NCBI GenBank assembly: GCA_036339375.1
Contig: JAYZBC010000025.1
Location: forward strand, 27,271 to 91,270
Source of the DNA: Pseudomonadota bacterium
GTDB lineage: Bacteria > Pseudomonadota > Alphaproteobacteria > MPNO01 > UBA2964
Reading direction: 5' to 3'
DNA: 64,000 nucleotides
Shown here: piece by piece, positions 1 through 23,269 of the stretch
Numbering within the stretch: the first letter of the stretch is position 1
Layout of the letters: the number at the start of each line of letters is the position of its first letter
Translations under genes and position numbers: made by a program
Notes under the pieces: generated by a model
Told to the model about the DNA's origin: nothing
The model's database searches: none
What the model saw: the letters and a program-made list of their open reading frames with translations, nothing else

Positions 1-790
1 ATTTACCAGCTTGATGTTCACTTAAGACCGCCGTGATATGGTCATCAACAACAATGACTTCGTCAACGTGTTGGTGCCATTGGGGTGCAAAGATACCTAC
101 TGTAGCCGAACCACAACCAACACGCATTCGTTCTTCCTGAATTTCATTGATTATTGGCGGCTTGCCGGCTTGTACAACAATTTTAGCTCCTCCATCTATA
201 GTCATTTCTACAGGCTCTTTATTGCAGAGCCTAAGCATAGAATTACACGTAATATTACCTTCCTTTTTACTACCACCTGTCAGATGACGAACACCTCCAA
301 TGGCGAGCATTTGGGATCCATATTCGGCAGTAGTGACATGGCCTATTTGTTCACCCTGAACCCGAATAGCTGCGGGTTCAGGGCCAATATAGGCATCTGT
401 ATCTATTTTAACCTTTACACCGCAATAACTGAAGACGCCTTCGCTAACCACGGTAACTGTATCGACCCCCTCGTGTTTGGTAGAAACTATAAAAGGCGCA
501 GGTTTATAGTCGGGGTATGTGGTAGTTGACCCGATGCCAGTAAGGAAGGTTGGTGCCTGACTGATAATTGTCCCATCCCAATCTTCATCAGTTTTGGTAA
601 ATTTGACTAAATTACCAGATTCGTTTTTTATTTTTTGAACAACTATAATCGGGTCTATTCTGACAAGTTTTCCGTCAAAATTTCCATAACGGTCGCAAGC
701 CCCTGTTTTGCCTTCACGAATTCGACACAATACTGGACAAGCGTCACAGCGGATTAAACCTTCATTTTTTTTGTTTAAATCTTCCGCCAA
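1..790 (-). CDS. Cysteine-rich hypothetical protein (N-terminal CxxCx3C...C motif), 5' part only; runs off the window edge
   Basis: Hand translation of the reverse strand from 790 is open: (L/M)AEDLNKKNEGLIRCDACPVLCRIREGKTGACDRYGNFDGKLVRIDP... A GGAGGG Shine-Dalgarno lies 5 nt upstream of TTG at 790-788. The + strand ORF 38..529 has a low-complexity, junk-like translation. Confidence 0.45.
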   Translation of the reverse strand, partial: MAEDLNKKNEGLIRCDACPVLCRIREGKTGACDRYGNFDGKLVRIDPIIVVQKIKNESGNLVKFTKTDEDWDGTIISQAPTFLTGIGSTTTYPDYKPAPFIVSTKHEGVDTVTVVSEGVFSYCGVKVKIDTDAYIGPEPAAIRVQGEQIGHVTTAEYGSQMLAIGGVRHLTGGSKKEGNITCNSMLRLCNKEPVEMTIDGGAKIVVQAGKPPIINEIQEERMRVGCGSATVGIFAPQWHQHVDEVIVVDDHITAVLSEHQAGK

Positions 791-6034: not shown

Positions 6035-7267
6035 TCAGGAAGAGCCAACAATGCCATCATTTTTCAACGAAAGGATTTCTTTTTCTTCTAATTTTAAAAC
6101 TTTTTTCAAAATTTCTTCTGTGTGTTGACCGAGGGTCGGAGGGGCTCCCTTGTATTCAAGGTTTTTGCCAACAAATCTTATTGGGTTAGCCACTTGAGGA
6201 ACTGATCCAGCTAAAGGATGAGATAACTCCATTTTCATATCACGGGCTTTGACCTGTGGGTGCTCAAACACTTGCTTTAAATTGTTAATTGGCCCGCAAG
6301 GAACGCCTACTTTTTCGAGTTCAACAATCCATTCTTTACTATTTCTTTGTTTCATAAATTTTTGAATTATAGGAATTAATATTTTTCGGTTTTTTACGCG
6401 GGCGGCATTAGTGGAAAATCTTTCATCTTTGGCGAGTTCTGCATGCCCAGCGATTTCAACAAACCTTTGAAATTGGCCGTCATTTCCTACCGCTATAATT
6501 AAAAATTGGTCCGAGGCTTCAAATGCTTCATAGGGAACAATATTAGGGTGTGCATTTCCCATCCGGTTAGGAGCTTCCCCCGTTACCAGGTAGTTCATCG
6601 CCTGATTTGCCATTGACGCAGTCGTAACATCTAAAAGAGACATATCTATATGACATCCTTTCCCACTACGTTCGCGTTGGGAAAGAGCACTTAAAGCAGC
6701 TATATTTGTATAAAGGCCAGTTAGAATATCTGTTAGCGCTACTCCTATTTTTTGCGGTCCAGACCCAGGTTTACCATCCGGCTCACCAGTTACACTCATA
6801 AGGCCACCCATAGCTTGAATCAAAAAGTCATAACCTGCCCGGTTACTAAAGGGCCCAGTCTGGCCAAATCCAGTAATTGAACAATATATTAAACTAGGAT
6901 TAATTTGTTTTAAATCGTCATACCCAAGCCCATATTGTGATAACCCCCCCTTCTTATAATTTTCAATCAACACATCCGAAACAACGACCAATTGGCGCAA
7001 AATCTCCTGACCATCCGATTTCGCAATGTCTAGAGCCAAAGATTTTTTACCTCGGTTTGCTGATAAAAAATAAGCAGATTCTTTAGTCTGATTACCCTCG
7101 GAATCAACAATAAAAGGTGGGCCCCATGCTCGGGTATCATCTCCTGTCCCCGGCCTTTCAATTTTAATTACTTCTGCCCCTAGATCAGCCAAAGTCTGTG
7201 CAGCCCAGGGCCCAGCCAGAATTCGGCTCATATCTAACACACGTATGTGTGAAAGAGGGGCAGTCAT
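6035..7267 (-). CDS. Family III CoA-transferase (CaiB/BaiF; SUGCT-like, likely succinyl-CoA:glutarate CoA-transferase)
   Basis: Start set at the in-frame ATG (MTAPLSHIRVLDMSRILAGPW...), giving about 410 aa. Conserved family III motifs are present. Sits 31 nt downstream of a glutaryl-CoA-dehydrogenase-like gene. Confidence 0.75.
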   Translation of the reverse strand: MTAPLSHIRVLDMSRILAGPWAAQTLADLGAEVIKIERPGTGDDTRAWGPPFIVDSEGNQTKESAYFLSANRGKKSLALDIAKSDGQEILRQLVVVSDVLIENYKKGGLSQYGLGYDDLKQINPSLIYCSITGFGQTGPFSNRAGYDFLIQAMGGLMSVTGEPDGKPGSGPQKIGVALTDILTGLYTNIAALSALSQRERSGKGCHIDMSLLDVTTASMANQAMNYLVTGEAPNRMGNAHPNIVPYEAFEASDQFLIIAVGNDGQFQRFVEIAGHAELAKDERFSTNAARVKNRKILIPIIQKFMKQRNSKEWIVELEKVGVPCGPINNLKQVFEHPQVKARDMKMELSHPLAGSVPQVANPIRFVGKNLEYKGAPPTLGQHTEEILKKVLKLEEKEILSLKNDGIVGSS

Positions 7268-7298
7268 TTTTTTACGGAATTTTGCACTTGGAAAAGGA

Positions 7299-8522
7299 TC
7301 ATACGAAAGCTTGTATTCCCGTTTGTGCACGCCCTAGAATTAAGGCATGGATATCATGCGTACCCTCGTAAGTGATCACTGTTTCCAAATTCATAACATG
7401 ACGAATTACATGATATTCATCAATAATACCATTTGCTCCATGCATATCTCGAGAGGTTCTAGCAATATCGAGTGCTTTTCCAGTGCAATGACGTTTCATT
7501 AAAGAAATCGCTTCTGGAGCGCACTTTCCTTCGTCCATCAACCGACCCAACCGTATGCAAGACCCCAAGCCAACTGTAATCTCTGTCTGCATATCAGCTA
7601 GTTTTTTCTGAATGAGTTGATTAGATGCTAAAGGTTTGCCAAATTGAGTGCGTTCCATCACATAATTACGGGCCGCGTGCCAGCAAAATTCTGCAGCGCC
7701 TAACACACCCCAAGCTATTCCATACCGGGCATTATTAAGACAACCAAAGGGACCACCCAGCCCTTTAGCCCCCTCCAACTTATTTTCTTTCGGTACAAAG
7801 ACATTATCCATAACGACTTCGCCTGTTAATGAAGCTCGTAAAGAGAATTTACCTTCCATTTTTGGCGCGCTGAGCCCTTTCATTCCTTTTTCAAGAATAA
7901 ATCCTCGGATTATGCCTTCATCATCCTTAGCCCAAATCACAAATATATCAGCAATAGGGGCATTTGATATCCACATTTTTGTGCCAGAAATTTGGTACCC
8001 CCCATCAACGTTTTTAGCTCTGGTTTTCAAACCTCCAGCGTCTGAACCGTGATCGGGTTCAGTTAAACCAAAACATCCAATAAACTCACCCTTAGCCAGC
8101 TTCGGCAAATATTTTTGACGTTGATCTTCATTCCCGTAAGCATAAATTGGCCACATTACGAGACTAGATTGTACAGATAAAACTGAGCGATAACTGGAAT
8201 CTACGCGCTCTATTTCTCGGGCAATAAGGCCATAGCTTACATAATTTACACCGGCACAACCGTATCGATTTTCAAGAGTTGATCCTAGAAGGCCGAGTTC
8301 ACCCATTTCATACATAATCTCTCTGTGGAATTTTTCCTTCCTGTTGGCTTCCAGAATACGTGTCATTAATTTTTCCTGGGCATATTGCCGGGTCGTTTCT
8401 CTAATTAATTTTTCATCTTCAGTCAGTTGCTCTTCGAAAAGCAAAGGGTCTTGCCAATCGAATTTTGCCCATTTTTTTATCCGGGCAATGTCGTCGACTG
8501 TTTTAACGGGTTCACTGGTCAT
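7299..8522 (-). CDS. gcdH: Acyl-CoA dehydrogenase, glutaryl-CoA dehydrogenase-like
   Basis: ACAD fold with strong resemblance to GCDH over the N-terminal half (...[42 protein letters not shown]...). Start placed at ATG 8522 with an AAGGAT SD 6 nt upstream. Confidence 0.7.
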
Positions 8523-8599
8523 GACAAAATCCTTAATGGGCCAAGAGCAACACTGGTCCACACGTTTTCAACGAAAACCAAACGCATTGGTTTTCAAAT

Positions 8600-8899
8600 C
8601 TATTCAGAATGCGGACGGGACATCCACATAGCTAGATCAAATGTGTTTAGATCTGCCGCACGCATCATTTCAGCAATTGCAACTACGGCTTCTGTCGCGG
8701 TAACTACATCTTTTTCTCGAAAAGGAGGAAAATAGGTGTCTTCATCTGTCAACTTCTTACAATAAAGTTTTGCTCCAGCGGCTAATAACATCTGGACGGT
8801 TTCCGGTGAAACAGATTCGGTACCGCCATCGTTCAGCACCTCTAGGGCACTCTTAAAAATTTGGCTGACCTCCTTTGCCATCTTATCAGATGATGACAT
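8600..8899 (-). CDS. Hypothetical 99-aa protein; its start overlaps the end of the Rieske gene
   Basis: ATG (MSSSDKMAKEV...) overlaps the last four codons plus stop of the upstream Rieske gene (ATGTCATCATCTGA) in the -1 frame. No recognisable domain. Confidence 0.4.
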   Translation of the reverse strand: MSSSDKMAKEVSQIFKSALEVLNDGGTESVSPETVQMLLAAGAKLYCKKLTDEDTYFPPFREKDVVTATEAVVAIAEMMRAADLNTFDLAMWMSRPHSE

Positions 8900-9251
8900 G
8901 GACTTCCCCATCTAAAACTTTAACGTCAAATTTCCGCAACCGAGCATTTTTATACCCCGGATGCACACCTGTTTTGATGTTAAATTCGTAGCCGTGCCAT
9001 GGGCAAACAATATGCACATCCTCGTCTGACCAAGTGAGGCCCTGACTTGTTTTATCTTCACCAAGCAATTCTACAACACGATTAAGAATGCGCCCTTGAC
9101 AAATTGGACCGCCCTGGTGAACACATTTGTTTTCATAAGCAAAAAATTCCCCATCAACAAAAAAGACGCCAATTTCTAAGTCACCCTGCGCAATTACTTT
9201 ACGGCCGCGATCTTCAAACTCCTCCTCGCGACCTACATATACGTCCGCCAT
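8886..9251 (-). CDS. Rieske [2Fe-2S] domain ferredoxin
   Basis: 121 aa with Rieske boxes CVHQGGPIC and CPWHGYEF. No oxygenase alpha subunit is adjacent. Confidence 0.7.
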   Translation of the reverse strand: MADVYVGREEEFEDRGRKVIAQGDLEIGVFFVDGEFFAYENKCVHQGGPICQGRILNRVVELLGEDKTSQGLTWSDEDVHIVCPWHGYEFNIKTGVHPGYKNARLRKFDVKVLDGEVHVII

Positions 9252-9271
9252 GTCTTTTCCCCTATTGTTCT

Positions 9272-10516
9272 TTATTTTTTAATATCTAAATTAAATAACC
9301 TTACGGCATTTTCACCCAAAATATTACGTTTGGCCTGCTCATCCAAAAAGGGTAGATTATAAATTGTACTGGGTGGATTGAAGTCCCAGTGTGGCCAGTC
9401 AGATGCGTAAAGTAGCTGCGTTTCGGCCTTTACAGCCTTAAAGGTCTCTTCTGTTAAACCCATATTTGCCGTCTCAATGGGCTGGCAGGTGTAATACATA
9501 TCCGCCATATACTCACTAGGTAGTTTTTTCAACAATGGTGCCTCCGAAGGACGCATCATATATTCAGAATCAAGACGTTGCATTAGAAAAGCCAACCATG
9601 CTAGGCCTGATTCAATCCAAATAACAGGTAATTTAGGAAAACGTTCCTGCATACCGTGTACAATCCAATTAGTCATATGCACGATATTGCACAAGACAAA
9701 AGACACAGAATGCATAGAGATGAACAAGTCTAACTGCTTCATCCAATCGTCACCCCAAGTAAGGCCGGCATGAAACGCAAGGGGCAAACCACGTTCTTCT
9801 AATTCTTTATAAATGGGAATATATTGATTATGATGCACCGGCTTGTAACGGATCGCCGTAATCATAAACCCCATAACGTTTGGGTTTTCTCCAAATTCTT
9901 TAATTATTTTTAAACAAGTGTCCGGTTCTGAAATCGGTAAATATAATAATGTTTTTACCCGGTCATCAGCCGGCAAAATTCGTTCACATACCCAACGATT
10001 GTAAGCAAGAGCCAACTGTGCTTCCACACGTGGCTGCGGATGCGTCCCCAGCTGTAACAGGTTTCCGGGGAATAACACTTGAAAATCCAAACCCATGGCA
10101 TCTAAAGACCGGCGCATAAGGGTAACATCACGATGAACGCTCTTATCGTCTACATCTTCTGCTAATTTTTGTTGATGTGGTATCCGCCCACCCGCATCCT
10201 GATAACGTAATCCCGGTGTCGCATTTGAAAGCCCGGGTGCTCCTCCTGTCCGCGATTGAAATTCTTGTGCATAGTGTTTAAGTATTGGATCATCTAAATA
10301 TTCTACGACCTCACGCCAAGAACTCATTTCTGAGTGGTGAGCATCAACATCAACTATGGTCCAATCATCAAAACCATTTTCTATACGAAACTTTGTTTCA
10401 TGCGCCAAAATATCACGAGTATCTGTGTTTATCGTAATTTGGTTAAGGAGTTCTCTTGTTTGTTCTACCCCACTATCCATAACGGTAACCTCCACGTTAA
10501 ATTCCGTCGTTAACAA
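9272..10516 (-). CDS. Amidohydrolase-2 (PF04909-type) metal-dependent hydrolase/decarboxylase family protein
   Basis: 414 aa with VDVDAHH metal-binding start and further His/Asp positions typical of the ACMSD/LigW/IDCase family. About 45-aa N-terminal extension. Confidence 0.65.
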   Translation of the reverse strand: MLTTEFNVEVTVMDSGVEQTRELLNQITINTDTRDILAHETKFRIENGFDDWTIVDVDAHHSEMSSWREVVEYLDDPILKHYAQEFQSRTGGAPGLSNATPGLRYQDAGGRIPHQQKLAEDVDDKSVHRDVTLMRRSLDAMGLDFQVLFPGNLLQLGTHPQPRVEAQLALAYNRWVCERILPADDRVKTLLYLPISEPDTCLKIIKEFGENPNVMGFMITAIRYKPVHHNQYIPIYKELEERGLPLAFHAGLTWGDDWMKQLDLFISMHSVSFVLCNIVHMTNWIVHGMQERFPKLPVIWIESGLAWLAFLMQRLDSEYMMRPSEAPLLKKLPSEYMADMYYTCQPIETANMGLTEETFKAVKAETQLLYASDWPHWDFNPPSTIYNLPFLDEQAKRNILGENAVRLFNLDIKK

Positions 10517-11079: not shown

Positions 11080-12537
11080 TTAATATTTAAATACGTTCGG
11101 GAACTTACTTCTCACTTCAGAAGCTAGTTCCGGAGATGTTTGTGCCACTGCCGGAAACGTGTCTATTCTCTCGTAAGGACGACAGGCATTAATGATCACA
11201 CGATTATTGAACAGAGTTTCTTCTTCATGCATTGGATCGAGACGGGAGGATTGGCATTGCGACAAATGCGTAATGTCCCGAGCAGGATCAGACCTTGTAC
11301 CCATTGCCCAAACAACATCATGTAAATTGGCTGCATCTATATCTTCATCCACTACAACAGTATAGCGCCCACAATAAGTTGCTGGGTTAAGTTGCGACGC
11401 CATTAGTCCAGCCTGAGTGGCATGCCCATAAAATCTTTGTTTTATTGAAACGACAACAAAGGTTCGACCGGAACCTGCTTCATGATGCCATACCCCGCGA
11501 ACATCTTGGACACCTGCTTTTTGCAATCCTTCAAGCAAGGTGACGGAGCGTGTAAAACACCGCTCAAACAAATGCGAATGCGGCGGTTTTTGACTTGCTG
11601 CACACGTCAAAATTGGGTTGCTCCGGTAATATACTTTTTTGATTTTAAAAATTGGATCCATTTCAGCGTCACCAGCATAATACCCGGTCCATTCCCCAAA
11701 GGGACCTTCCATACGTTCTTCATCCGGAACTTGTTCACCTTCAATAACAATTTCAGAATGTGCAGGAAAAGGTAAACCATTATCGCCAACAATTAAGTCA
11801 ATTGGCTTACCAGCAAGGCCTCCTTGAAAAGCAAATTCATCAACGTCGTCGGGAATTGTCATGCGCGCTGCAAGAAAATGTGTCGGATCAACGCCCACGA
11901 CAATTGTAGCAGGACAGGGTTCACCCTTTGCAAAATACTTTGCGCGCTGAATATTTCCTTGTTTCCCATTGGAAATCATTACGCCTAGAGTTTGGCCGTC
12001 ATGTACCATACACCGATAAGTTCCGGAATTAACGCGTCCGTTATCAGGGTCTCTTGTGACAACACCACACGCTGTCCCTATATAACGTCCTCCATCTAAT
12101 TCATGATGTACAGGTACAGGTAATAATTTTGTTATATCTATTTCATCTCCCTCCAAAATGTTTTCAAGGATAGGTCCATTTTCTACTATCCTTGGTGGAA
12201 TAGGTTCATGATTAAACATTTTTTCTCGGTAGGCGTTTAATAGAGCAAATCGATCAGTCGACAATTCTGTATCCATTCCTACTGCCAGTGCTAAACGAAA
12301 AGGAGACGCCAGCATCCCATACAAGCAACGGAATCCTTCTGGATAGCCGGGAACTTTATCAAACAAAACCGCTTTCGCTTTTTCGACACGCTCTCGATAC
12401 AAAACTTCAACAACCGCGCCCATTTCTTTATCCCAATGCGCACCATTTACCTTTTCAAGCTGACCGGCTTCTTCTGCAGCCGCTAAAAAATCTCGTAAAT
12501 CTGTTTGCGGGCTGAAGTTCTCCCTACCACCATCCAT
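11080..12537 (-). CDS. UbiD-family (prFMN-dependent) aromatic acid decarboxylase paralog 1
   Basis: About 485 aa with the UbiD hallmark DGGRYIGT, ...SEIVIEG... acidic motif and C-terminal oligomerisation region. Start placed at ATG (MDGGREN...) 8 nt after an AGGAGAG SD. Confidence 0.8.
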   Translation of the reverse strand: MDGGRENFSPQTDLRDFLAAAEEAGQLEKVNGAHWDKEMGAVVEVLYRERVEKAKAVLFDKVPGYPEGFRCLYGMLASPFRLALAVGMDTELSTDRFALLNAYREKMFNHEPIPPRIVENGPILENILEGDEIDITKLLPVPVHHELDGGRYIGTACGVVTRDPDNGRVNSGTYRCMVHDGQTLGVMISNGKQGNIQRAKYFAKGEPCPATIVVGVDPTHFLAARMTIPDDVDEFAFQGGLAGKPIDLIVGDNGLPFPAHSEIVIEGEQVPDEERMEGPFGEWTGYYAGDAEMDPIFKIKKVYYRSNPILTCAASQKPPHSHLFERCFTRSVTLLEGLQKAGVQDVRGVWHHEAGSGRTFVVVSIKQRFYGHATQAGLMASQLNPATYCGRYTVVVDEDIDAANLHDVVWAMGTRSDPARDITHLSQCQSSRLDPMHEEETLFNNRVIINACRPYERIDTFPAVAQTSPELASEVRSKFPNVFKY

Positions 12538-12597
12538 TTTCATCTCTCCTCTCATTTTTAAATCTTCTACCAACAAATATTGTTGTTATCGACATGT

Positions 12598-14094
12598 TTA
12601 ATCCCTTAGGTAGCCCCATCTTTCCCAAGCCTTTCGTCGGGCTTCTGGGGTAGGTGCGTTCACTTTTTGGAACTTATCTTTCCAATGAAATGGACGACAA
12701 GCATTAATGATAGCTCTACTGTTATAGAGCTTACCTTGTTCACGGTCATCAGGCGAAATAACTGGATCCAACGCGGAACTCCACATATTGTGAATTATAT
12801 CTATGCCACTTGCTGGATCACAGCGCGTACAAACTGCCCAAATAACTTCTTCTAAATTAGAAACATCAACATCTTCGTCAACTACCACAACAATCCGGCC
12901 CAAATAAGCACCAGCATGGCAGGTGGCTGTAATTTGGCCAGCCTGGGTCGCATGACCCGGATACCGTTGCTTGATAGACACTGCCAAAAATAAACGCGAA
13001 CCCCCAACCTCATGGGCCCAAACCTCCACAACATCAGGAACACCTGCTCGGTTAATATTTTCCTTCAATACAGCCGAACGGCTGATCGCCCGATAACGAG
13101 CATATTCATAGGGCATCCGAATATGAGCGGCACCTAAAATAATGGGATTGTTGCGATGATAAATTGCCGCAATATCTATCCAAGGCTCAGCCGCCATTAC
13201 TCCACCTTGATAGCCAAGCCATTCCCCAAAAGGGCCCTCACGACTTGTATTGCCCGGATTTATAAATCCCTCAATAACAATTTCAGAATTAGCTGGAAAA
13301 GGCAGTCCGGTATGTTTACCTTCAACACACTCTATGGCTTTTCCACGATAGGCACCCATCATATCAAGCTCACACATACCTTCGGGTGCTTCCGTCGAAG
13401 ATGTCAAAAATGATAATGGATCGCTGCCAACAACAACACATACTGGCATGGGTTTGTTATTTGCCAGGTACTTGTCTCTGTGGATCCTCCCATGTTTTCC
13501 AGGGGAAATATAAAGTCCCACTCTTTTTGCATCATGTACCATCACCCGATAGGTACCACAATTTATCCAACCGCTATCTGGATCACGTGTGATATTGAAA
13601 CAGCCTGTTCCAATATACCTACCCCCATCTTCTGGATTCCAAAGGGGTGATGGAAATTTCGTAATATCAACATCTACACCTTCGGTGATGTTTTCAAAAA
13701 TCGGGCCATCCCTAACAATAGCATGAGGTATAGGTGTGAGATTCCGGGTATGGCGATGATATGCCTGACTTAGTTCAAGTTTATTCAGTTGAGAGGGAAA
13801 TCCAAGTGTGAGGTTCTTTCGTGTACCCGTAAACCAGTTGATTAATAAACGAAACCCCTTCGGACTGCCCTTCACCTCATCAAACAGAATTGTGGGAGTA
13901 TTTTCGTCGTGACAGACGACTTCAACTACTTGACCAATATCGCTCTCCCAATCCGCTCCTTTCACAATTTTTAGGTCACCACGTTTTTTTACTTCCTCCA
14001 ACCAATCACGTAGATCAACATATTCAAGTGCGCAGCCTGCATTCGGGCCAACACCCTGTATAGTCTCGGGTTCAATTGCATTCCCCATTCCCAC
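12598..14094 (-). CDS. UbiD-family decarboxylase paralog 2
   Basis: 498 aa with DGGRYIGTG and NSEIVIEG motifs. By-eye identity is about 50% to paralog 1 and about 70% to paralog 3. GTG/ATG start is ambiguous. Confidence 0.8.
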   Translation of the reverse strand: MGMGNAIEPETIQGVGPNAGCALEYVDLRDWLEEVKKRGDLKIVKGADWESDIGQVVEVVCHDENTPTILFDEVKGSPKGFRLLINWFTGTRKNLTLGFPSQLNKLELSQAYHRHTRNLTPIPHAIVRDGPIFENITEGVDVDITKFPSPLWNPEDGGRYIGTGCFNITRDPDSGWINCGTYRVMVHDAKRVGLYISPGKHGRIHRDKYLANNKPMPVCVVVGSDPLSFLTSSTEAPEGMCELDMMGAYRGKAIECVEGKHTGLPFPANSEIVIEGFINPGNTSREGPFGEWLGYQGGVMAAEPWIDIAAIYHRNNPIILGAAHIRMPYEYARYRAISRSAVLKENINRAGVPDVVEVWAHEVGGSRLFLAVSIKQRYPGHATQAGQITATCHAGAYLGRIVVVVDEDVDVSNLEEVIWAVCTRCDPASGIDIIHNMWSSALDPVISPDDREQGKLYNSRAIINACRPFHWKDKFQKVNAPTPEARRKAWERWGYLRD

Positions 14095-14127
14095 ACTCGT
14101 TTAACGTAAGTTTTCCGTCAAAAGAAA

Positions 14128-14162
14128 TCCGGCCGCCGCACTAATGTTTGGTACGGCAGCCG
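14128..14162 (-). terminator. GC-rich imperfect hairpin between UbiD-3 and UbiD-2 (possible intercistronic attenuator or processing site)
   Basis: CCGGCCGCCG ... CGGCAGCCG inverted repeat (7/8 bp, about 15-nt loop) in an otherwise AT-rich 91-nt spacer, with a T-rich tract following on the transcribed (minus) strand. Confidence 0.3.
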
Positions 14163-14185
14163 ACCTCTATTTCAGTACACCCATT

Positions 14186-15679
14186 TTAAGAGGGTTTTTC
14201 GCAAAGGTGTCCCCACTTCTCTATAGCCTCTCTCATGACTTCTGGCTCCGGAGAATTTACAGGGGGAAATTCATCTTTCCAATGAAATGGGCGACAAGCA
14301 TCAATAATCGCCCGGCTATTAGTCAAATTGCCTTTGGCTTTTTCTTCCGGTGGAATTCTTGGATCCAAAGGTGTAGACCAACAATTATGAATGATATCAA
14401 TTGAGGTTGCTGGATCAGAACGTGTGATCATGCCCCAGATTAGCTCTTCCAAGTTAGTCACATCAATATCATCATCTACAACGATTACGTATTTACCTGC
14501 ATATGCCCCGAGATGACACATAGCAGCAACGTGACCCGTTTGCATTGCATGTCCAGGGTAACGTTGCTTTATTGAAATAGCGAGTAACATTCGGGCGGTA
14601 CCAACTTCGTGGGCCCAAACCCCTTGCACATCTGGCACTCCAGCCTTGACAATATTTTCTTTGAGTGCGGCTGAACGTGTAACTGCCCTATAACGTGCCA
14701 ACTCATCTGGTGGGCGCAGAGGTGGACAGCCCAAAATTATTGGATCGTTCCTGTGATAAATAGCCTTAATGTCTAAAACTGGCTCAGCACGCATTTTTGA
14801 ACCATAGTAGCCAGTCCATTCCCCGAATGGTCCCTCTTCAACCCGGTTACCAGGTTCAATAAAACCCTCTAATACAAGTTCCGCATTTGCAGGAAAGGGT
14901 AAACCAGTATGTTTGCCTTTGACGCATTCAATAGCATGCCCCCGATAGCCTCCTAAAATATCATATTCACAGGCACCGGGTGGCATTTCTGTACAACCCA
15001 TTAAGAAGGCCATGGGATCACCACCCAAAACGATACAAGCCGGCATAGGCTCACCATTAGCTTCGTATTTATCACGATGGATTCGACCATGTTTCCCGGG
15101 CGAAATGTAAAATCCGACTTGTTTTTTGTTATGGATCATAACCCGGTAGGTTCCGATATTTATCCAATCACTATCTGGATCACGCGTTACATTGTAGGAA
15201 CCCGTTCCTATATAACGTCCACCATCTTTGTCATGCCACATCGGCGTCGGAAATTTCTCGACGTCTATGTCATCGCCTTCCATAATATTTTCGAATACCG
15301 GCCCGTTATCAACAATTGCATGTGGAATTGGCTCTATAGAAGATAGATGTTTATGGACCCCGTCGGTTAGCTCAAGTTTGGTAAAGTCAGGGGAAAAACC
15401 CATTGTCATGCATTTTCGTTTACCGGCAAAGAAATTGATCATCATTCTAAAACCAGGAGGACAACCCGGCACTTCATCAAAAATGATGCAGGGCGCGTTT
15501 TCATCATGCTGGACAACTTCAGAAGCCAACCCGATGTCCTTTTCCCAACTCGCTCCCTTAACGACTCTAACTTCGCCAAGTTTCTCGGCTTCCACGATCC
15601 ATTCTCTCATATCTTCGTAAGTCATACGGGCACCAACATTCGAACCACTGTCAACGGCCGTAGCTTTTACATCTGCCAT
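14186..15679 (-). CDS. UbiD-family decarboxylase paralog 3
   Basis: About 497 aa with DGGRYIGTG and NAELVLEG motifs. Start placed at ATG 15679 (MADVKATAV...) with a GGGAGAG SD upstream. The ORF-track start 15754 is an upstream in-frame extension. Confidence 0.8.
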   Translation of the reverse strand: MADVKATAVDSGSNVGARMTYEDMREWIVEAEKLGEVRVVKGASWEKDIGLASEVVQHDENAPCIIFDEVPGCPPGFRMMINFFAGKRKCMTMGFSPDFTKLELTDGVHKHLSSIEPIPHAIVDNGPVFENIMEGDDIDVEKFPTPMWHDKDGGRYIGTGSYNVTRDPDSDWINIGTYRVMIHNKKQVGFYISPGKHGRIHRDKYEANGEPMPACIVLGGDPMAFLMGCTEMPPGACEYDILGGYRGHAIECVKGKHTGLPFPANAELVLEGFIEPGNRVEEGPFGEWTGYYGSKMRAEPVLDIKAIYHRNDPIILGCPPLRPPDELARYRAVTRSAALKENIVKAGVPDVQGVWAHEVGTARMLLAISIKQRYPGHAMQTGHVAAMCHLGAYAGKYVIVVDDDIDVTNLEELIWGMITRSDPATSIDIIHNCWSTPLDPRIPPEEKAKGNLTNSRAIIDACRPFHWKDEFPPVNSPEPEVMREAIEKWGHLCEKPS

Positions 15680-15732
15680 AAAATTTCTCTCCCTAAGTAA
15701 ATACGTCCCATTTCCAATTATTCTCGAAAATA

Positions 15733-15823
15733 GGCAATACACAATTTGCCACAAATTTTAAAAAAGGTAAAAGTTTTCGAATGGCAATACAAAAACTTTT
15801 GAAAGACTAGAATTATGCCATTC
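15733..15823. promoter_or_regulatory. Cluster of inverted and direct repeats upstream of UbiD-3 (candidate operator plus promoter)
   Basis: GGCAA-N8-TTGCC inverted repeat at about 15733-15750. (A/T)GGCAATACA repeated directly at about 15732 and 15781. GAATGGCA...TGCCATTC inverted repeat at about 15779-15823. All lie in the 190-nt gap between the 2OG oxygenase stop and the UbiD-3 start. Confidence 0.3.
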
Positions 15824-15946
15824 TAATACAGAAGTCACGTAAAGCTTTAAAAATTTTAACTTATTTTTGGATATTATTTAGATACTGGGAAATGAGGTAT
15901 TAGCAAAATAAGCGTGGAAAACAATATTATAATGGCTAAACGAATT

Positions 15947-16864
15947 TTATCCGGAAATTTCATTACTCTCCGCAATCCGTTGAGCAACATAGGCACCAGC
16001 CGTTGTGGCTGGATATTTGGCTGGTTGACCCACGCTGACACAACTGTCGAAAGCACTCACTGGTACATCTGTATCAGGATCAACAAAAAATGCTATTGAA
16101 TAACGTTCACGATCCCCAGTAATAGCTCTTACCCTGTGAGGGCTTGAACAATAGCGATCATTTGTCCAAGTTGCGATCAAATCAGCTGTATTTACAATTA
16201 CCGTCCCTGGAATGTGCACTGCATCGAGCCATTGACCAGAACGATTTTGGATTTGTAGACCTCCTACATCATCCTGAAATAATAAAGTTATTGTACCAAA
16301 ATCTGTGTGTGCTCCAGCCCCTAATTGATTTGCAGATAAATTTTTACCCGAAATAGGGTAATGTAAATAACGTAAAGCCACATTTTCTCCCTTATGACGT
16401 TCGCGAAAATATTTAATTGGAAGGTCAAGTGCTATGGCAAAGGCTTCCATAACAATATTTGACCCTCGTAAACATTCTCCGAAAGCACGGACAGCAATTC
16501 TACGAAATTCGTTGGAAGGCCATAAATTCAAAAATTTCTCACGCAACGGTACATCGCGCATGGTAAAGGCTTCTTTCAAATCAGGGGCAAATTGGGAATC
16601 AAGTCGTTGTTCTCCAACACCTTGGTATCCATGGTTCATGTCTTGAACGTAAGATAATTTTGATTTTTCGGACAGCGGTTGTTTGAAAAATTTTACACTA
16701 GAATTAAATGCATCTTGGAGAATATTTTGGTCAATACCTAAATTTTTTGCATACATAAAACCTACTTCAGACGCGGCCTTATTTACCTCTTCTGAAATTC
16801 TCCGTCGTTCGTTTTCGTCACCACTGTCAAATCTTTTAAAATCGATTAGAGGTATATTTGTCAC
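15947..16864 (-). CDS. 2OG-Fe(II) oxygenase, isopenicillin-N-synthase-like (COG3491-type)
   Basis: 305 aa. N-terminal (...IPLIDFKRF...) plus HxD...H facial triad region (GAHTDFGTITLLFQDD...SSPHRV). Confidence 0.7.
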   Translation of the reverse strand: MTNIPLIDFKRFDSGDENERRRISEEVNKAASEVGFMYAKNLGIDQNILQDAFNSSVKFFKQPLSEKSKLSYVQDMNHGYQGVGEQRLDSQFAPDLKEAFTMRDVPLREKFLNLWPSNEFRRIAVRAFGECLRGSNIVMEAFAIALDLPIKYFRERHKGENVALRYLHYPISGKNLSANQLGAGAHTDFGTITLLFQDDVGGLQIQNRSGQWLDAVHIPGTVIVNTADLIATWTNDRYCSSPHRVRAITGDRERYSIAFFVDPDTDVPVSAFDSCVSVGQPAKYPATTAGAYVAQRIAESNEISG

Positions 16865-16895
16865 AATATTTATTCTCCCAAAACATCAGGTTATT

Positions 16896-18440
16896 CTATA
16901 AAGAAAATTTATCCTTAATCCAAAATTCTGCCAGTGCATTTCGATCAAGCTTTCCCCGAGAATTTTTTGGCAGTTCATTTAAAAATATAATTTTTTTAGG
17001 GCATTTAGCTGCAGGCAATGTTTTCGAACAATGTTCCATTAAATCTTTAGGGTTCACTTTACTGCCTTTTTTACAAGAAACGTACGCAATTATTTCCTCT
17101 CCATAAATTTTATCAGGTATTCCTAATGTTCCTGCTTCAGATACTGCTTGATGCAAAACCAATACAGCATCAATTTCGAGTGGGGCAATATTTATTCCCC
17201 CCCGAATAATTAATTCCTTTGCCCTTCCCACAATATGGAGATGGCCCTCACTATCAACATAACCCAGATCACCAGTTTTGTGACCTCCCTCTGGCAAGAG
17301 TTCAATTTTACCGTTTGGTAATAAATAACCAAATGCCTGCTGCTTACCCCCTCCTACAATGATTTCTCCGGTTTTACTTTCTTTAAGTAAATTACCATCG
17401 CCATCAACAATACGAACATCTTGATATTTTAACTGTGGGCCAATCGACCCAATTTTTCTATCAGCTCCTCGGTGGGCTGCTGTGTTTCCTCCTTCACTTG
17501 AACCACAGCTTTGAGCAAGTGTAATACCAAAAATTTTTTCAAATTCACGCCATTGTTCTTCATGAAGTGGGGCAGAACTTGAGGTTAAAAATCGGAGCTC
17601 TGGTAATTTACCAATATTTGTATTTTGAGTTCGATTTAACAACATGTTAACCATTGTTGGGACTACAAAACCAATATTGATTTTAAATTTCTTCAACCAA
17701 TAAAAATAACGGCTCTGAGAAAACCGTTTGGCCATAAACGTAGTCCCGCCTGCGATGAGCGGAGCTCCAAGACTCATATGTTGAGCCGATAGCCAACTAT
17801 AAGATCGACAATCTAAAACCCGGTCTCCAGGGGATAGTTGGAGATAGTCAGCCGTAGCGTCATAATTGTAAAACGCATTGGCATGGGTTTGGATTACACC
17901 CTTTGGCTTCGCTACTGTGCCTGAAGTGTAAAAAATAACGCCATGATCATCCGGCTCTGCACAACTGGATAAATCATCCTTGTCAGTAAAATTATAAACT
18001 TCCGAAAAAAAGCCCGTCGAATTTTTCTCTCCTTTAAATTCTCCCAAAAGAAGCCATATCCCAGGGGCCTTTTGTTTTAATTCCTCCAGTCCCAAACCGC
18101 TTTGATACAAAATTATTTTTGGATCAATAGCCTTTATGATTTCAATCAAGCTACCTTGATTCATCTCAACATGGACTGTCGCTATACTCGCGCCATAACG
18201 CAGAACGCTTACGAATACTGCTAAATTTTCTACTGAGTTTTCAGCCAGTAACAATATACGGTCGTTGGCTTTTATTTTGTGTGTTTTTAAAAAGTGAGAT
18301 ATCCGATTAGACAACCCATAAAGGGTTCCGTAGGTAAGGGATTTGTTTTGATCAATACAATGGACGTAAATCCGATCCGGAAACTGGGCTGCGTTTTTGG
18401 CTAAAATTTGATGAAAATTTGTATAGCAGTTTAAAGCCAC
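16896..18440 (-). CDS. AMP-dependent synthetase/ligase (acyl-/aryl-CoA ligase)
   Basis: 514 aa with the adenylate-forming enzyme motif YTSGTVAKPKGV and a C-terminal ligase domain. Confidence 0.8.
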   Translation of the reverse strand: MALNCYTNFHQILAKNAAQFPDRIYVHCIDQNKSLTYGTLYGLSNRISHFLKTHKIKANDRILLLAENSVENLAVFVSVLRYGASIATVHVEMNQGSLIEIIKAIDPKIILYQSGLGLEELKQKAPGIWLLLGEFKGEKNSTGFFSEVYNFTDKDDLSSCAEPDDHGVIFYTSGTVAKPKGVIQTHANAFYNYDATADYLQLSPGDRVLDCRSYSWLSAQHMSLGAPLIAGGTTFMAKRFSQSRYFYWLKKFKINIGFVVPTMVNMLLNRTQNTNIGKLPELRFLTSSSAPLHEEQWREFEKIFGITLAQSCGSSEGGNTAAHRGADRKIGSIGPQLKYQDVRIVDGDGNLLKESKTGEIIVGGGKQQAFGYLLPNGKIELLPEGGHKTGDLGYVDSEGHLHIVGRAKELIIRGGINIAPLEIDAVLVLHQAVSEAGTLGIPDKIYGEEIIAYVSCKKGSKVNPKDLMEHCSKTLPAAKCPKKIIFLNELPKNSRGKLDRNALAEFWIKDKFSL

Positions 18441-18526
18441 GCTATCATTATCCTGCCTGTCAATTTTTTCTGTCGATAAAAGGTTCTCTTAAATCTGAGT
18501 TTAACATGACAGCGATTTTTGAAAAA

Positions 18527-20092
18527 TTAGCCGTTACCTGTCTCACCCAACCAACGAAAGTAGGGATCTTGCATTGCCCGAAGTTCAGAGAGTTCATCAT
18601 CAGAAAACCATTTAGAAAAATCCATTTCCTCGACTGGATAATGGGCTCGTTCATAAACCTGTACACCGAGGGGTGCTGTAGCATCAATTCCCATACCTCC
18701 ATCAGATACGGAGATATTGCCAATCTTGTGTTCAGAAGGCTGAAAAGCCTGACCTCGTCCGTATTCGTTATAAACGATGTAATCTTTAGTAGCAGAAGCA
18801 CGCGATTGAATGGCCCACATCACGTCTTCCGGTTGCCAGGGGTCAATATCATCATCCACAACAACGACGAGTCGCATGCCTCGGTAAAGTCCCATTATGG
18901 CGGTGAGTAAATTGCGCTGCATACCTTCATCGGAGCGCCGACGTTTTTTTACCTGGATAACCAATCCACCCCAAAGTGTTAGACCTAGCCAGCTCGCAAC
19001 ATCTTTTACAAAGCCAGGGGCCATCCTTTCACAAAGCTCAAAAACGCTGGCACACATAAAAGGGGCCTCATACCAAAAAGCACCAAAATGTGGGGTGTAC
19101 ACAATTGGATTATTTTTACGCCGAGTTACTGCGGTGAGTTCAAAAGCCCGGGGCGTCCGATATGCATGGCCCATAGTACGCGCCCACTCGGGATGCAATA
19201 AAGCCACCCCTTGTTTACCCATTTCTTCTGCTTCAGCAGTTTCCCAAACACGTTCTCCTTCTACAACATACCCCTCAAGTGACCACTCAGCATTGGCAAT
19301 TGTATATGCATCTACCGTTTTGGCCTTCACTACATCCACTGGGTAACCCTGAATGGCACCAGCAAAACCCAGCTTATCTGTCTGCCCGGGGAAAATGACA
19401 GGGTTCATAGTAGAGACTGAAACTAGTTCAGGACCGACAGGTGGGCAAATATTTACCGTGCATGGTACTTTCTCCCCTTGGTGACGCGAGCAAATTACGT
19501 CACCAGCGCCCCCTGGCACCATGTTTATAGAAGCAAGTTTGTGTCCTTCTCTAAACGACATTCGATACATAGAAATTTGACTACCACCCCCAGGTACCCA
19601 GGGTTCACCCATAAAAAGATGTGATCCCGCACCGAAAATTCTTCCGCCATCTTGGAAGGTGTGTTGTGCAACGGGTATAATTTCTTCAATATGATTAAAA
19701 TCTTTCCCCGGGATAAGTGTTTCCTCATGGACCGGACCGTCGTCTACCACGCGTGGGGCAATTGGATTTTCAACCTGCTTTAATAGCTGATTTTTGATGT
19801 TTCGGAAGTCATCACACCCGTGAAATAAACACACACGCTCTTTTCTAGAGTATAGATTAGATATCATCCTAACATTTGGATAACCTTTGATTTTGTTAGC
19901 AACAATTACTTTAGAGTTATCAAAGGCTTTGGTTATAGTACACATCTCAACGTGGGGATCGACCTCGGCGTCAATATAGTGAACATCGTCGCCAAGCCAT
20001 TCAAGTGTAGACCGTAAGTCAACAAGCCCTTCACCACGCGTCAGGCTGCTAAACCTTTGATCGTCTAGCTTAACTGTCATTCGGTCTGACAT
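18527..20092 (-). CDS. UbiD-family decarboxylase paralog 4 (divergent)
   Basis: 521 aa. UbiD-like throughout (QDGGRIFGAG..., NAEWSLEG) but much more divergent than paralogs 1-3. Confidence 0.7.
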   Translation of the reverse strand: MSDRMTVKLDDQRFSSLTRGEGLVDLRSTLEWLGDDVHYIDAEVDPHVEMCTITKAFDNSKVIVANKIKGYPNVRMISNLYSRKERVCLFHGCDDFRNIKNQLLKQVENPIAPRVVDDGPVHEETLIPGKDFNHIEEIIPVAQHTFQDGGRIFGAGSHLFMGEPWVPGGGSQISMYRMSFREGHKLASINMVPGGAGDVICSRHQGEKVPCTVNICPPVGPELVSVSTMNPVIFPGQTDKLGFAGAIQGYPVDVVKAKTVDAYTIANAEWSLEGYVVEGERVWETAEAEEMGKQGVALLHPEWARTMGHAYRTPRAFELTAVTRRKNNPIVYTPHFGAFWYEAPFMCASVFELCERMAPGFVKDVASWLGLTLWGGLVIQVKKRRRSDEGMQRNLLTAIMGLYRGMRLVVVVDDDIDPWQPEDVMWAIQSRASATKDYIVYNEYGRGQAFQPSEHKIGNISVSDGGMGIDATAPLGVQVYERAHYPVEEMDFSKWFSDDELSELRAMQDPYFRWLGETGNG

Positions 20093-20248
20093 TTGCGTCC
20101 TCCTACATAAAAACTTTAATCGATATTATAGTTTAATCTTTATAAACGAACCTAGTTTAAATCAACAGGGCTTTCCCGTTTTGTTACACAGCGTTAATAT
20201 TAATAACAATTTTTATATTTTTCTGATCGGAACAAGAAGGAGACCGAA

Positions 20249-20764
20249 ATGTTAGATTCACCGGAATTTGCAAAGCCTGCCAAAACCAACAAACAAATGA
20301 AAGAACAAGAAGTTTCGTTTGCCGAAATTCAAACTCCTTATTGTTTTTCACTGAAAGGCCAATTGCTTGACCAAGGCCGAACAGACACCGTATTAGCTGC
20401 AACTGATGATTTGACTATCCGGCTCAAAATTTACGCATCTGGCGGGGAAAATGAACTCCATGCTCACCCCCACGAGGATCACAGTTTTATGATTCTACAA
20501 GGTTCCGCCAAATTTTTTGGTCCGAATGAAGAAGAAATTGATTTAAAACAATGGGAAGGAATCATGTTGCCGCGCGGCAATTTATATAAATTTTATGCTA
20601 CCAGCAAAGAACCTCTTGTCATGATACGAGTTGGAAACCCTAACTATAAAAAACAAACGGCACCCTACCGTGTCAACAAAAAGGGTGTGGAAATGAGAGG
20701 TGATTCTGAAGAGAACAAAACCGTTCCCGTCATTTTCAAAGAAGATACCTTTTTCGGTAGTTAA
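20249..20764 (+). CDS. Cupin-domain protein
   Basis: 171 aa with cupin motifs (GGENELHAHPHEDHSFMILQGSAKF...). Divergently transcribed from UbiD-4. Confidence 0.55.
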   Translation: MLDSPEFAKPAKTNKQMKEQEVSFAEIQTPYCFSLKGQLLDQGRTDTVLAATDDLTIRLKIYASGGENELHAHPHEDHSFMILQGSAKFFGPNEEEIDLKQWEGIMLPRGNLYKFYATSKEPLVMIRVGNPNYKKQTAPYRVNKKGVEMRGDSEENKTVPVIFKEDTFFGS

Positions 20765-22273: not shown

Positions 22274-23269
22274 CTAAACCTTAAATTCGCTTTGAACCTC
22301 TTTAGGAAACATTTCTTCAGGCGTTAAGTGCCGGTGAAACAACCCCTGTTCGTAACCATAGAGCAGAAATGCCTCCAACGTTTTTCGGTTTGGCTCAATA
22401 CCATAAGGATAGAAATCATTTCCAAATAAATCACGTGCTTCCGATGCTGCATTATAAACCCACGCGATTGGAGCCCTACATGCTGTTATATCGAGCATTC
22501 TCTCGAGTGATCGATTTTTTGCCTCGGTAAGGGCCTTGACCATATTCTGAGCCACCCAGGGGTCTGCTTCAAAAACTTCTCTCCGAATTGCGTAGAGGTG
22601 CATGATGGGCCAAATACCCGTCTTTTCATAATACTCCTTTTCTACCCGCTGGTAATCTTTATAAAGACGTACAATTCGGGGATCACCCTGTTCAACCAGG
22701 TCTGGAGGATGTGCCGTTAAAATTGCATCAATGTCACCCGCCAGTAAAAGTTCAGTCAAAGATTTGTCTGGACACGGAATTAACTTAACTCCATCAGGAA
22801 GCTTAAGAGCGACCTTTTCTTTTCGGCCGGCTTGATTGACACCAGCTTGGTGCCATTCGATTTCGTTTAATGGAATTCCTATGTCATGCTGAAGCCAGCC
22901 ACGTGAATACACCGAAGCGGATTGACCCCATTCTGGTATTCCAATTCTTTTACCAGCCAGATCTTCAGCCTTTTTCACAACGCTATCAGCAGAAATGTAG
23001 AGTGAAGACTGACGATGAACGCGGGAAGGAAATATCGGCAATCCCACAAACCGATCATCGCCTTGACTTATCATTGAGGTGTATTTTCCAGAAGAAATTT
23101 CTGAAATATCGTATTCTTCAAAATTGATAAAGCGATGAAACATTTCTTCAATTTGAACTGTCATCGCTATTAAATCTATTCCCTCTGGTTCAACAGGGCC
23201 TAGGGTTAGGTCTCTTACATGGTCATAATCGCTTGTAGCGAACGTAAGTTTTAACCGTTTCTTCGGCAT
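22274..23269 (-). CDS. Cytoplasmic NMT1/THI5-like (SsuA-fold) protein resembling 4,5-dihydroxyphthalate decarboxylase (Pht5/PhtD-like)
   Basis: 331 aa with no signal peptide (MPKKRLKLTFATSDYDHVRDLTLGPVEPEGIDL...), a periplasmic-binding-protein-like fold outside any transporter operon. The Pht5 similarity is recalled from memory, not searched. Confidence 0.45.
   Translation of the reverse strand: MPKKRLKLTFATSDYDHVRDLTLGPVEPEGIDLIAMTVQIEEMFHRFINFEEYDISEISSGKYTSMISQGDDRFVGLPIFPSRVHRQSSLYISADSVVKKAEDLAGKRIGIPEWGQSASVYSRGWLQHDIGIPLNEIEWHQAGVNQAGRKEKVALKLPDGVKLIPCPDKSLTELLLAGDIDAILTAHPPDLVEQGDPRIVRLYKDYQRVEKEYYEKTGIWPIMHLYAIRREVFEADPWVAQNMVKALTEAKNRSLERMLDITACRAPIAWVYNAASEARDLFGNDFYPYGIEPNRKTLEAFLLYGYEQGLFHRHLTPEEMFPKEVQSEFKV

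Follow-up and report, generated by a model that had tools for sequence, protein, structure and literature searches.

The 64,000-nucleotide stretch of DNA analyzed here (the window; positions 27,271 to 91,270 of contig JAYZBC010000025.1, assembly GCA_036339375.1) comes from a Pseudomonadota bacterium of the alphaproteobacterial lineage UBA2964, and carries three consecutive minus-strand genes encoding a UbiD-type decarboxylase (UbiD-4), an AMP-forming coenzyme A (CoA) ligase and a 2-oxoglutarate (2OG)/Fe(II) oxygenase. We lean towards a reading in which the ligase makes an aryl-carboxy-CoA that UbiD-4 decarboxylates, as an aerobic version of a known two-enzyme module to which the oxygenase would be an accessory. 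This reading draws on the placement of UbiD-4 in the branch of UbiD enzymes represented by phthaloyl-CoA decarboxylase (PCD), and on the conserved linkage of this type of UbiD with this type of ligase across phyla. We regard the version as aerobic because the oxygenase requires O2 and because a predicted second oxygenase system, an amidohydrolase-related dinuclear oxygenase (ARO) with a Rieske ferredoxin, is encoded downstream.

Three closely spaced genes on one strand

The three genes are intact open reading frames (ORFs) at exactly the positions assigned to them by a first-pass annotation made from the letters of the window. UbiD-4 (18527-20092, 521 aa) contains the Pfam domains UbiD_N, UbiD and UbiD_C, as expected of a decarboxylase of the type that uses prenylated flavin mononucleotide (prFMN); the ligase (16896-18440, 514 aa) contains AMP-binding and AMP-binding_C and is predicted to act on an acyl or aryl substrate; and the oxygenase (15947-16864, 305 aa) contains DIOX_N and 2OG-FeII_Oxy, a combination annotated as "isopenicillin N synthase family". 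The previously reported gaps of 86 nt between UbiD-4 and the ligase and 31 nt between the ligase and the oxygenase are borne out by these coordinates, and public gene calls on contig CAZYHK010000001.1 (GCA_964646825.1) list the same three products. Looking up the exact proteins in public records returned UbiD-4 but neither the ligase nor the oxygenase. A Shine-Dalgarno-like purine-rich site lies upstream of each start, with a strong TAGGAGG before the UbiD-4 ATG. That site falls within the 156-nt region (20093-20248) separating UbiD-4 from a divergent cupin gene (20249-20764, plus strand, 171 aa, Cupin_2), which we infer to be the likely UbiD-4 promoter region. Downstream of the oxygenase, beyond a 267-nt spacer, lie three canonical-type UbiD paralogues (11080-15679, minus strand; the UbiD triplet).

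In a consensus scan, no terminator-like hairpins were found in the 86-nt gap, the 31-nt gap or the 267-nt spacer, and promoter-like sites were no more common than in shuffled sequence (13 versus 12.1 expected). Since the three genes share a strand, are separated by short gaps without terminators and each have a ribosome-binding site (RBS), it is plausible, judging by spacing, that they are close enough for one transcript. The ligase and oxygenase genes have a lower G+C content (39.0% and 40.0%; 30% and 26% at third codon positions, GC3) than the UbiD genes on both flanks (43.8-46.4%).

UbiD-4 is placed in the PCD branch

All three UbiD domains of UbiD-4 score above their Pfam cut-offs. Its best matches in the Protein Data Bank (PDB) are the two PCD entries, 8pmk and 8oz5 (E 4e-81, 276 bits, residues 19-512), and the next-best solved relative is the protocatechuate decarboxylase AroY, at 114 bits. 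An AlphaFold model computed from 23 family members (mean pLDDT 78, pTM 0.84) was matched against UbiD structures with TM scores of 0.60-0.79 overall; in Foldseek both PCD entries ranked first (E 6e-37, TM 0.74-0.77), followed by AroY, HmfF and VdcC, with the best of the free-acid UbiD enzymes at E 1.5e-29. When all were aligned together, UbiD-4 showed 33% identity with PCD, compared with only 23% for the other three UbiD proteins of the window. Moreover, UbiD-4 and PCD share some 13 extra residues immediately ahead of the catalytic Glu (…ETAEAEEMGKQGVALLHPEW…) and a C-terminal extension, both absent in canonical UbiDs. Because PCD is closest by both sequence and predicted fold, and because these two features are shared, we assign UbiD-4 to the PCD branch rather than to the generic UbiD enzymes.

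The catalytic network of Aspergillus niger Fdc1, which we take to consist of E277, R173 and E282, serves as a reference for the active site. At the positions that align with the UbiD Glu-Arg-Glu network, UbiD-4 has E284, R177 and E302, all invariant in the 23 family members. A Glu-Arg-Glu/Asp network is described for Fdc1 (PMC5818171). UbiD-4 is strongly conserved, with 84-90% identity across many marine genomes and 88 invariant columns in the 23 sequences.

Linkage of UbiD-4 with the ligase across phyla

We surveyed one genome per species of the Genome Taxonomy Database (GTDB) with a profile of 23 UbiD-4 relatives, annotating the neighbors by tblastn with the window proteins. The survey recovered 78 species-representative loci with UbiD-4 homologues at 36-90% identity, 21 of them with an orthologue at 84-90%, and 65 were informative, with 2 kb or more of sequence downstream of this gene. 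In 46 of these 65 loci a ligase homologous to that of the window lies downstream on the same strand, within 400 nt in 24 cases; family III CoA-transferase genes, mostly as a pair, take this place in 5 loci, and neither ligase nor transferase is found in the other 14. The loci come from marine Rhodospirillaceae-like Alphaproteobacteria, Betaproteobacteria, Actinomycetes, Chloroflexota/Dehalococcoidia, Rokubacteria, deltaproteobacteria and Syntrophorhabdus, and ligase identity drops across them in parallel with UbiD-4 identity.

Since the linkage is so widespread across phyla, the genomic sequences provide strong evidence that a UbiD-4-type enzyme and its ligase form a long-standing two-gene module. 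Synteny of the ligase with UbiD genes, whose absence from every related genome would have spoken against the first-pass proposal, is kept in related genomes well beyond the close ones. The loci with CoA-transferase genes match the arrangement of known clusters that combine succinyl-CoA:phthalate CoA-transferase with PCD. Together, the PCD match and the conserved UbiD/ligase synteny lend support to the earlier suggestion that the UbiD enzyme may act on a CoA thioester, as in phthaloyl-CoA decarboxylation.

The survey also recovered PCD-like UbiD genes with window-type ligases in two Syntrophorhabdus metagenome-assembled genomes (L082 and L083) and in loci L081 and L088. The gene order in L082 is GntR regulator, UbiD, ligase and TAXI-TRAP transporter, and the name of one Syntrophorhabdus bin (PtaB) hints at a terephthalate-wastewater reactor. 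This pair is a candidate for the anaerobic activation and decarboxylation of terephthalate or another phthalate isomer.

The linked ligases as a family

The ligase matches AMP-binding at 201.7 bits and AMP-binding_C at 65.2 bits, and its translation contains the core motifs YTSGTVAKPKG, GDLGY, GRAKELIIRGGINI and PKNSRGK; the C-terminal catalytic lysine (K497) is present here and in a second AMP-ligase of the window (55415-56935). No NCBIfam model reached its cut-off, the best being the generic PRK06187 (279 of 476 bits), and the benzoate, 4-hydroxybenzoate, phenylacetate/PaaK and 4-coumarate/feruloyl ligase families were absent from the best 25 of 105 NCBIfam matches. Among PDB proteins, the highest score was to oxalate-CoA ligase (184 bits), ahead of FadD13 (167), malonyl-CoA synthetase (164), o-succinylbenzoate-CoA ligase (MenE, 151), 4-coumarate-CoA ligase (4CL, 128) and 4-chlorobenzoate-CoA ligase (100). 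A grouping with benzoate, 4-hydroxybenzoate, phenylacetate or hydroxycinnamate ligases, as the first-pass annotation had envisaged, is not supported by these two rankings. Several of the nearest characterized neighbors of the ligase activate dicarboxylic acids.

When compared with the window ligase, those adjoining UbiD-4 homologues in other phyla reach 298-504 bits, whereas the window paralogue reaches 155 bits (26% identity) and the top PDB match 184 bits. By this comparison, the linked ligases form a single, apparently uncharacterized family that travels with PCD-like UbiD genes. An alignment of 20 linked ligases contains 69 near-invariant columns. R212 and W216 are invariant in this family and specific to it; the stretch that holds them is taken to be the A4 acyl-pocket motif, with W216 replacing the usual His, and one may speculate that R212 binds a second carboxylate.

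The oxygenase as a lineage-specific accessory

DIOX_N and 2OG-FeII_Oxy match the oxygenase at 89.9 and 79.6 bits, and its iron triad (H186-x-D188...H243) and 2OG site (R254-x-S256) are invariant or nearly so in 27 homologues. Source databases label these homologues "isopenicillin N synthase family oxygenase", yet the score of isopenicillin N synthase itself is as low as 56 bits. Among PDB entries, fungal thymine-7-hydroxylase (T7H; 5c3p, 160 bits, 37% identity) matches best, while feruloyl-CoA 6'-hydroxylase reaches 71 bits. The substrate contacts of T7H are N87, E122, R190, Y217, F292 and N294 (PMC4787775). Four of these six are kept in the oxygenase (N87 as N77, R190 as R165, Y217 as F189 and F292 as F260, the Tyr-to-Phe change being tolerated in T7Hs) and two are changed (E122 to T101 and N294 to D262). 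As the residues that are kept are also present in a solved homologue, 9ovh, they are better read as features of the subfamily than as indicators of substrate.

Scanning metagenome contigs with an oxygenase profile yielded 80 loci, five of which carry an oxygenase at least 61% identical to that of the window. The ligase is adjacent in all three of these that have enough flanking sequence, and all three also carry a conserved DctP gene; among the loci with oxygenases at most 56% identical, none has the linked ligase family or a UbiD gene next to the oxygenase. It is likewise only in relatives at least 61% identical that the oxygenase directly follows the ligase, or follows the ligase and an aldolase-family gene. 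Within the linked set, the ligase and oxygenase are 63-69% identical to their window counterparts, UbiD-4 84-90% and the triplet genes 78-88%. The parallel divergence of the ligase and oxygenase genes, and their lower G+C content relative to the UbiD genes, lead us to treat the two as a unit, and suggest a co-evolving pair within one lineage that was replaced as a cassette or has evolved faster.

On this comparative evidence the oxygenase appears to be a lineage-specific accessory and not a core part of the module. The first-pass annotation had proposed an unreported route that includes oxidative tailoring; such a route is possible, but the oxygenase adjoins the ligase in one lineage only, and an aldolase-family gene often substitutes for it.

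Arrangement in the closest relatives

Where UbiD-4 is 74% identical or more, the divergent cupin gene (65-86% identity) almost always adjoins it. UbiD-4 and the ligase, by contrast, are not contiguous in most close relatives (UbiD-4 84-90%). Either an opposite-strand SDR gene lies in a gap of about 900 nt, or 3-8 kb intervene that hold a thiamine pyrophosphate (TPP) enzyme of the acetolactate-synthase type, an alpha/beta hydrolase and other genes, and because of these frequent interruptions co-transcription of the three genes is not conserved among them. What follows the ligase varies between the oxygenase, a class II aldolase-family gene and the two together; the best NCBIfam match of the aldolase-family protein is a weak one, to the 3,4-dihydroxyphthalate decarboxylase PhtC (77 bits versus a cut-off of 200). 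Next, in many relatives, come TRAP transporter genes and/or a divergent LysR gene before the UbiD triplet, and in those with the divergent LysR gene a separate promoter must drive the triplet.

The "five-gene arrangement" that the first-pass annotation had entertained as a conserved unit is thus broken at two points, before the ligase by the SDR gene or several kilobases and before the triplet by LysR and/or TRAP genes. The tight UbiD-4/ligase junction of the window recurs at only one other species-level locus (L015), and the window is the most compact version of the locus. A search within the window found no homologue of the relatives' TPP enzyme, hydrolase, aldolase, DctP or LysR. We also considered the relatives' TPP enzyme as an oxalyl-CoA decarboxylase/2-hydroxyacyl-CoA lyase, which would fit the similarity of the ligase to oxalate-CoA ligase. 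The protein instead matches PRK08322 at 733 bits, with the CoA-dependent enzymes far lower, and by sequence is assigned to the catabolic acetolactate-synthase type; we set the idea aside.

The UbiD triplet and genes further downstream

Pfam UbiD domains are present in all three triplet proteins, which also pass the cut-off of TIGR00148 (UbiD family decarboxylase), and their orthologues, 78-88% identical, lie downstream of the ligase block in relatives. The longest ORF of the first triplet gene starts at TTG 15754 and leaves a spacer of 192 nt to the oxygenase; ATG 15679, which has a AGGGAGAG RBS and matches the public 497-aa call, leaves 267 nt (15680-15946) and is the likely start. An earlier figure of about 190 nt hence holds with the TTG but not with the likelier ATG. 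The AT-rich spacer had also been called repeat-rich, a description that our analysis does not support. It contains one 12-nt direct repeat in two copies, together with imperfect inverted repeats, and across the window the motif shows no clear enrichment (7 matches versus 3.4 expected, with 2 of 100 shuffles reaching 7). Among the fetched loci, the repeat occurs upstream of the triplet only in three same-strain loci; given this distribution and the lack of clear enrichment, we rejected GTATTGCC as a conserved operator. In relatives, the position of the spacer is occupied by TRAP transporter genes and/or a divergent LysR gene. A transcript continuing from the oxygenase into the triplet is at most a possibility.

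Homologues of the first triplet gene (UbiDa-like, 42-59% identical) were found within a few kilobases of PCD-like UbiD genes in anaerobes (L062, L064, L065, L067, L071, L074, L076, L080, L084 and L087), comprising Bacillota, deltaproteobacteria, Chloroflexota, Rokubacteria and one Methanomicrobia archaeon. This suggests a functional link between the two UbiD types that extends far outside the lineage of the window, perhaps for successive decarboxylations.

Downstream of the triplet lies a minus-strand block (8600-10516) that comprises an Amidohydro_2 gene (9272-10516), a gene for a Rieske ferredoxin (8886-9251, 121 aa) and a 103-aa ORF with no family match. The best PDB matches of the Amidohydro_2 protein are the ARO structures 8sm7, 8sm6, 8sm9 and 8sm8 and the AibH-type 6m1w, whereas classical decarboxylases with this fold reach no more than 24-34 bits. 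The signature of AROs has been given as "PF04909 next to a small Rieske protein" (PMC10811679), and the three genes are kept after the UbiD genes in locus L026. The Amidohydro_2 gene probably encodes an uncharacterized ARO monooxygenase, in one string with four UbiD genes. We had also considered it as an iso-orotate-decarboxylase-like partner of a T7H-like oxygenase, an idea abandoned in view of its matches to the AROs.

Still further along the minus strand, at 6035-8561, a family III CoA-transferase gene overlaps an acyl-CoA dehydrogenase gene by 32 nt. The closest model of the former is succinate-glutarate CoA-transferase (518 bits, below the 750-bit cut-off), and the latter is moderately similar to glutaryl-CoA dehydrogenase. 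The two are probably a glutarate-utilization pair that ends the minus-strand gene string, and we treat them as a separate unit. On the other side of the locus, a conserved 331-aa ORF without a Pfam or NCBIfam match (22274-23269, minus strand) has relatives at 72-79% identity, and in many of them is syntenic with OCD/mu-crystallin and DHDPS-like genes. A 163-aa ORF at the start of the window (38-529, plus strand) has no Pfam family match.

A candidate mechanism and its precedents

With these intact, closely spaced genes, their family assignments and the conserved linkage of UbiD type and ligase type in hand, we infer the following reaction order. The ligase would use ATP to turn an aromatic or heteroaromatic di- or polycarboxylic acid, the most likely class of substrate, into its mono-CoA thioester. 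The prFMN-dependent UbiD-4 would then strip a remaining ring carboxyl from the thioester, as PCD does, and the resulting aryl-CoA would be further processed or hydrolyzed. The oxygenase might act before ligation, for example by T7H-like oxidation of a ring substituent, or might hydroxylate the CoA-bound product, as plant feruloyl-CoA 6'-hydroxylase (F6'H1) does.

The closest parallel is with the PCD (PhtDa) systems, in which phthalate is activated by succinyl-CoA:phthalate CoA-transferase in Thauera, Aromatoleum and 'Azoarcus', and by an ATP-dependent phthalate-CoA ligase in D. cetonica. They resemble the present locus in the UbiD branch to which their decarboxylase belongs, in having a CoA-activating gene beside the decarboxylase gene and, in the relatives of the window, in having carboxylate (TRAP-type) transporters near. 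They differ in that UbiD-4 comes from aerobic marine Alphaproteobacteria and is no more than 33% identical, in the O2-dependent oxygenase of the gene string and the lack of UbiX among the scanned window ORFs, and in the residues at the metal positions (below). Isophthalate-CoA ligase (IPCL) and isophthaloyl-CoA decarboxylase of Syntrophorhabdus aromaticivorans likewise combine an ATP-dependent ligase with UbiD-type decarboxylation of the CoA thioester; Syntrophorhabdus genomes also carry an uncharacterized window-type pair (UbiD 39% and ligase 36-37% identical), beside GntR and TAXI-TRAP genes.

For the oxygenase, two precedents come into view. Fungal T7H, its nearest solved relative (37%), works with iso-orotate decarboxylase, and such a pathway, with a ring carboxyl made by an oxygenase and taken off by a decarboxylase, would fit a decarboxylase-rich cluster, although the decarboxylases of the window are UbiD-type and not amidohydrolase-type. 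In plants, F6'H1, a DIOX_N/2OG-FeII_Oxy enzyme, hydroxylates a CoA thioester in combination with 4CL, which offers a mechanistic precedent for a CoA ligase paired with such an oxygenase; in contrast, the similarity of both to the window proteins is low (128 bits for 4CL and 71 for F6'H1). In the literature that we searched, we found no relevant account of this gene combination or of marine UbiD clusters.

Counter-evidence and alternative explanations

Several observations weigh against the thioester-decarboxylating pair. The substrate class of UbiD-4 is deduced from PCD, to which its identity is only 33%. In addition, two or three of the ligands that hold the metal in canonical UbiD enzymes are replaced in UbiD-4. 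In Fdc1, N168, H191 and E233 are the ligands of the metal that bridges the prFMN phosphate; at these positions UbiD-4 has Q172, A196 and K240, so that its activity or cofactor binding could differ. PCD itself has H/H/E here, and the enzyme is described as Fe2+- and K+-dependent. Furthermore, no match to UbiX/Flavoprotein was found in the 40 window ORFs scanned with Pfam (several ORFs beyond 46 kb and a few earlier ones fell outside the scan), whereas known anaerobic o-phthalate clusters all carry a UbiX-like flavin prenyltransferase; a housekeeping UbiX may possibly be encoded elsewhere in the genome, outside the window. On the genomic side stand the separation of UbiD-4 from the ligase in most close relatives, which means that co-transcription is not conserved among them, and the 14 informative loci with neither ligase nor transferase. 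A sub-branch of marine Alphaproteobacteria (L035, L036 and L040; UbiD-4 62-64%) has a DUF2461 gene before UbiD and a polysaccharide-deacetylase (CE4)-like gene in place of the ligase, followed in L035 by a 4HBT_2 thioesterase gene. Finally, IPCL, the single isophthalate-CoA ligase characterized so far, is a PaaK-type (phenylacetate-CoA-ligase-like) protein of about 49 kDa, and thus of another branch than the 514-aa window ligase, which is of the FadD/AAE type.

The replaced metal ligands could be taken to mean that UbiD-4 is a degenerate paralogue that has no catalytic role and serves, for instance, as a structural or regulatory subunit. Across the UbiD-4 clade the loss is stepwise, from mostly Q/H/E in relatives 47-52% identical to UbiD-4, through Q/Q (once H)/E in those 57-61% identical, to Q, then A, G or Q, then K in the window protein and relatives at least 63% identical, the replaced state being present in the aerobic marine branch. 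We consider a loss of catalysis highly improbable, given the strong conservation of UbiD-4 among marine genomes and the invariance of its Glu-Arg-Glu positions; moreover, the H-to-A/G/Q and E-to-K changes are correlated, which looks like a remodeled site rather than decay, and K240 may stand in for the cation.

A different chemistry, with UbiD-4 first carboxylating or decarboxylating a free aromatic acid and the ligase then activating the resulting or a neighboring acid, would agree with the gene order of UbiD followed by ligase. The same order is seen in clusters for anaerobic benzene, naphthalene and phenol metabolism, where a carboxylase is followed by a CoA ligase; it is the architecture that the first-pass annotation had put first. 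The next-best relatives of UbiD-4 (AroY, HmfF and vanillate decarboxylase) use free acids, and free-acid-type UbiD paralogues lie nearby in the window and beside PCD-like genes in anaerobes. We nonetheless judge this chemistry unlikely, since the PCD match is over twice that of any free-acid enzyme (276 versus 114 bits), UbiD-4 has the PCD-specific insertions, and the CoA-transferase genes (usually a pair) that replace the ligase fit a supply of thioester, as in phthalate clusters. The three genes might also belong to a loose catabolic island and serve unrelated substrates, with the oxygenase belonging to the TRAP import of the relatives. There, the oxygenase is followed by the highly conserved DctP (86-97% among relatives) and often lies many genes away from UbiD-4; several close genomes lack the oxygenase or have the class II aldolase-family gene instead; oxygenases at most 56% identical never adjoin a linked ligase or a UbiD gene; and the 25 kb around the genes form a mosaic of oxidoreductases. 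Such a loose assembly is improbable as well, because the UbiD-4/ligase linkage is too widespread for chance, and because the ligase and oxygenase genes are adjacent wherever both occur (with the aldolase gene between them in two cases) and diverge in parallel.

The two-step reading, in which the ligase supplies the thioester and UbiD-4 decarboxylates it, can also be extended to give the oxygenase a defined part, an extension that we regard as distinctly unlikely. In such an aerobic "oxidize, activate, decarboxylate" route, a T7H-like oxygenase, the ligase and a metal-independent PCD-like UbiD would together remove a ring substituent. The oxygenase would start from an aromatic or heteroaromatic acid and turn its methyl, hydroxymethyl or formyl substituent into a second carboxyl, the ligase would make the mono-CoA thioester, and UbiD-4 would take off the new carboxyl; a Lys-containing prFMN site would replace the Fe2+/Mn2+ site and would hence be O2-tolerant. 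If true, it would allow widespread marine Rhodospirillaceae-like bacteria to channel methylated or polycarboxylated aromatics from dissolved organic matter, or plasticizer-derived phthalates, into aryl-CoA metabolism.

Implications

The combination of a CoA-activating enzyme with a PCD-family UbiD is already known from denitrifying, sulfate-reducing and fermenting phthalate degraders. What the sequences add is an apparently distinct UbiD subfamily in aerobic uncultured marine Alphaproteobacteria, with a remodeled metal site and an uncharacterized ligase family beside it, together with a predicted O2-dependent oxygenase in the gene string and a putative second oxygenase system, the ARO with its Rieske ferredoxin, downstream.

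CoA-dependent decarboxylation of the phthalate type has been studied mainly in anaerobes and denitrifiers, and here a member of the same enzyme branch adjoins O2-dependent oxygenases. Anaerobic terephthalate activation has been reported as still to be settled, and the linked ligase family, given its Syntrophorhabdus members, is a concrete candidate for it. The stepwise loss of metal ligands in the aerobic clade offers a lead on how prFMN enzymes may become independent of oxidation-sensitive Fe2+. The hosts are uncultured and seemingly common marine Alphaproteobacteria, and if UbiD-4 is active, the locus would point to an aerobic marine sink for aromatic di- and polycarboxylates, whether natural or plasticizer-derived.

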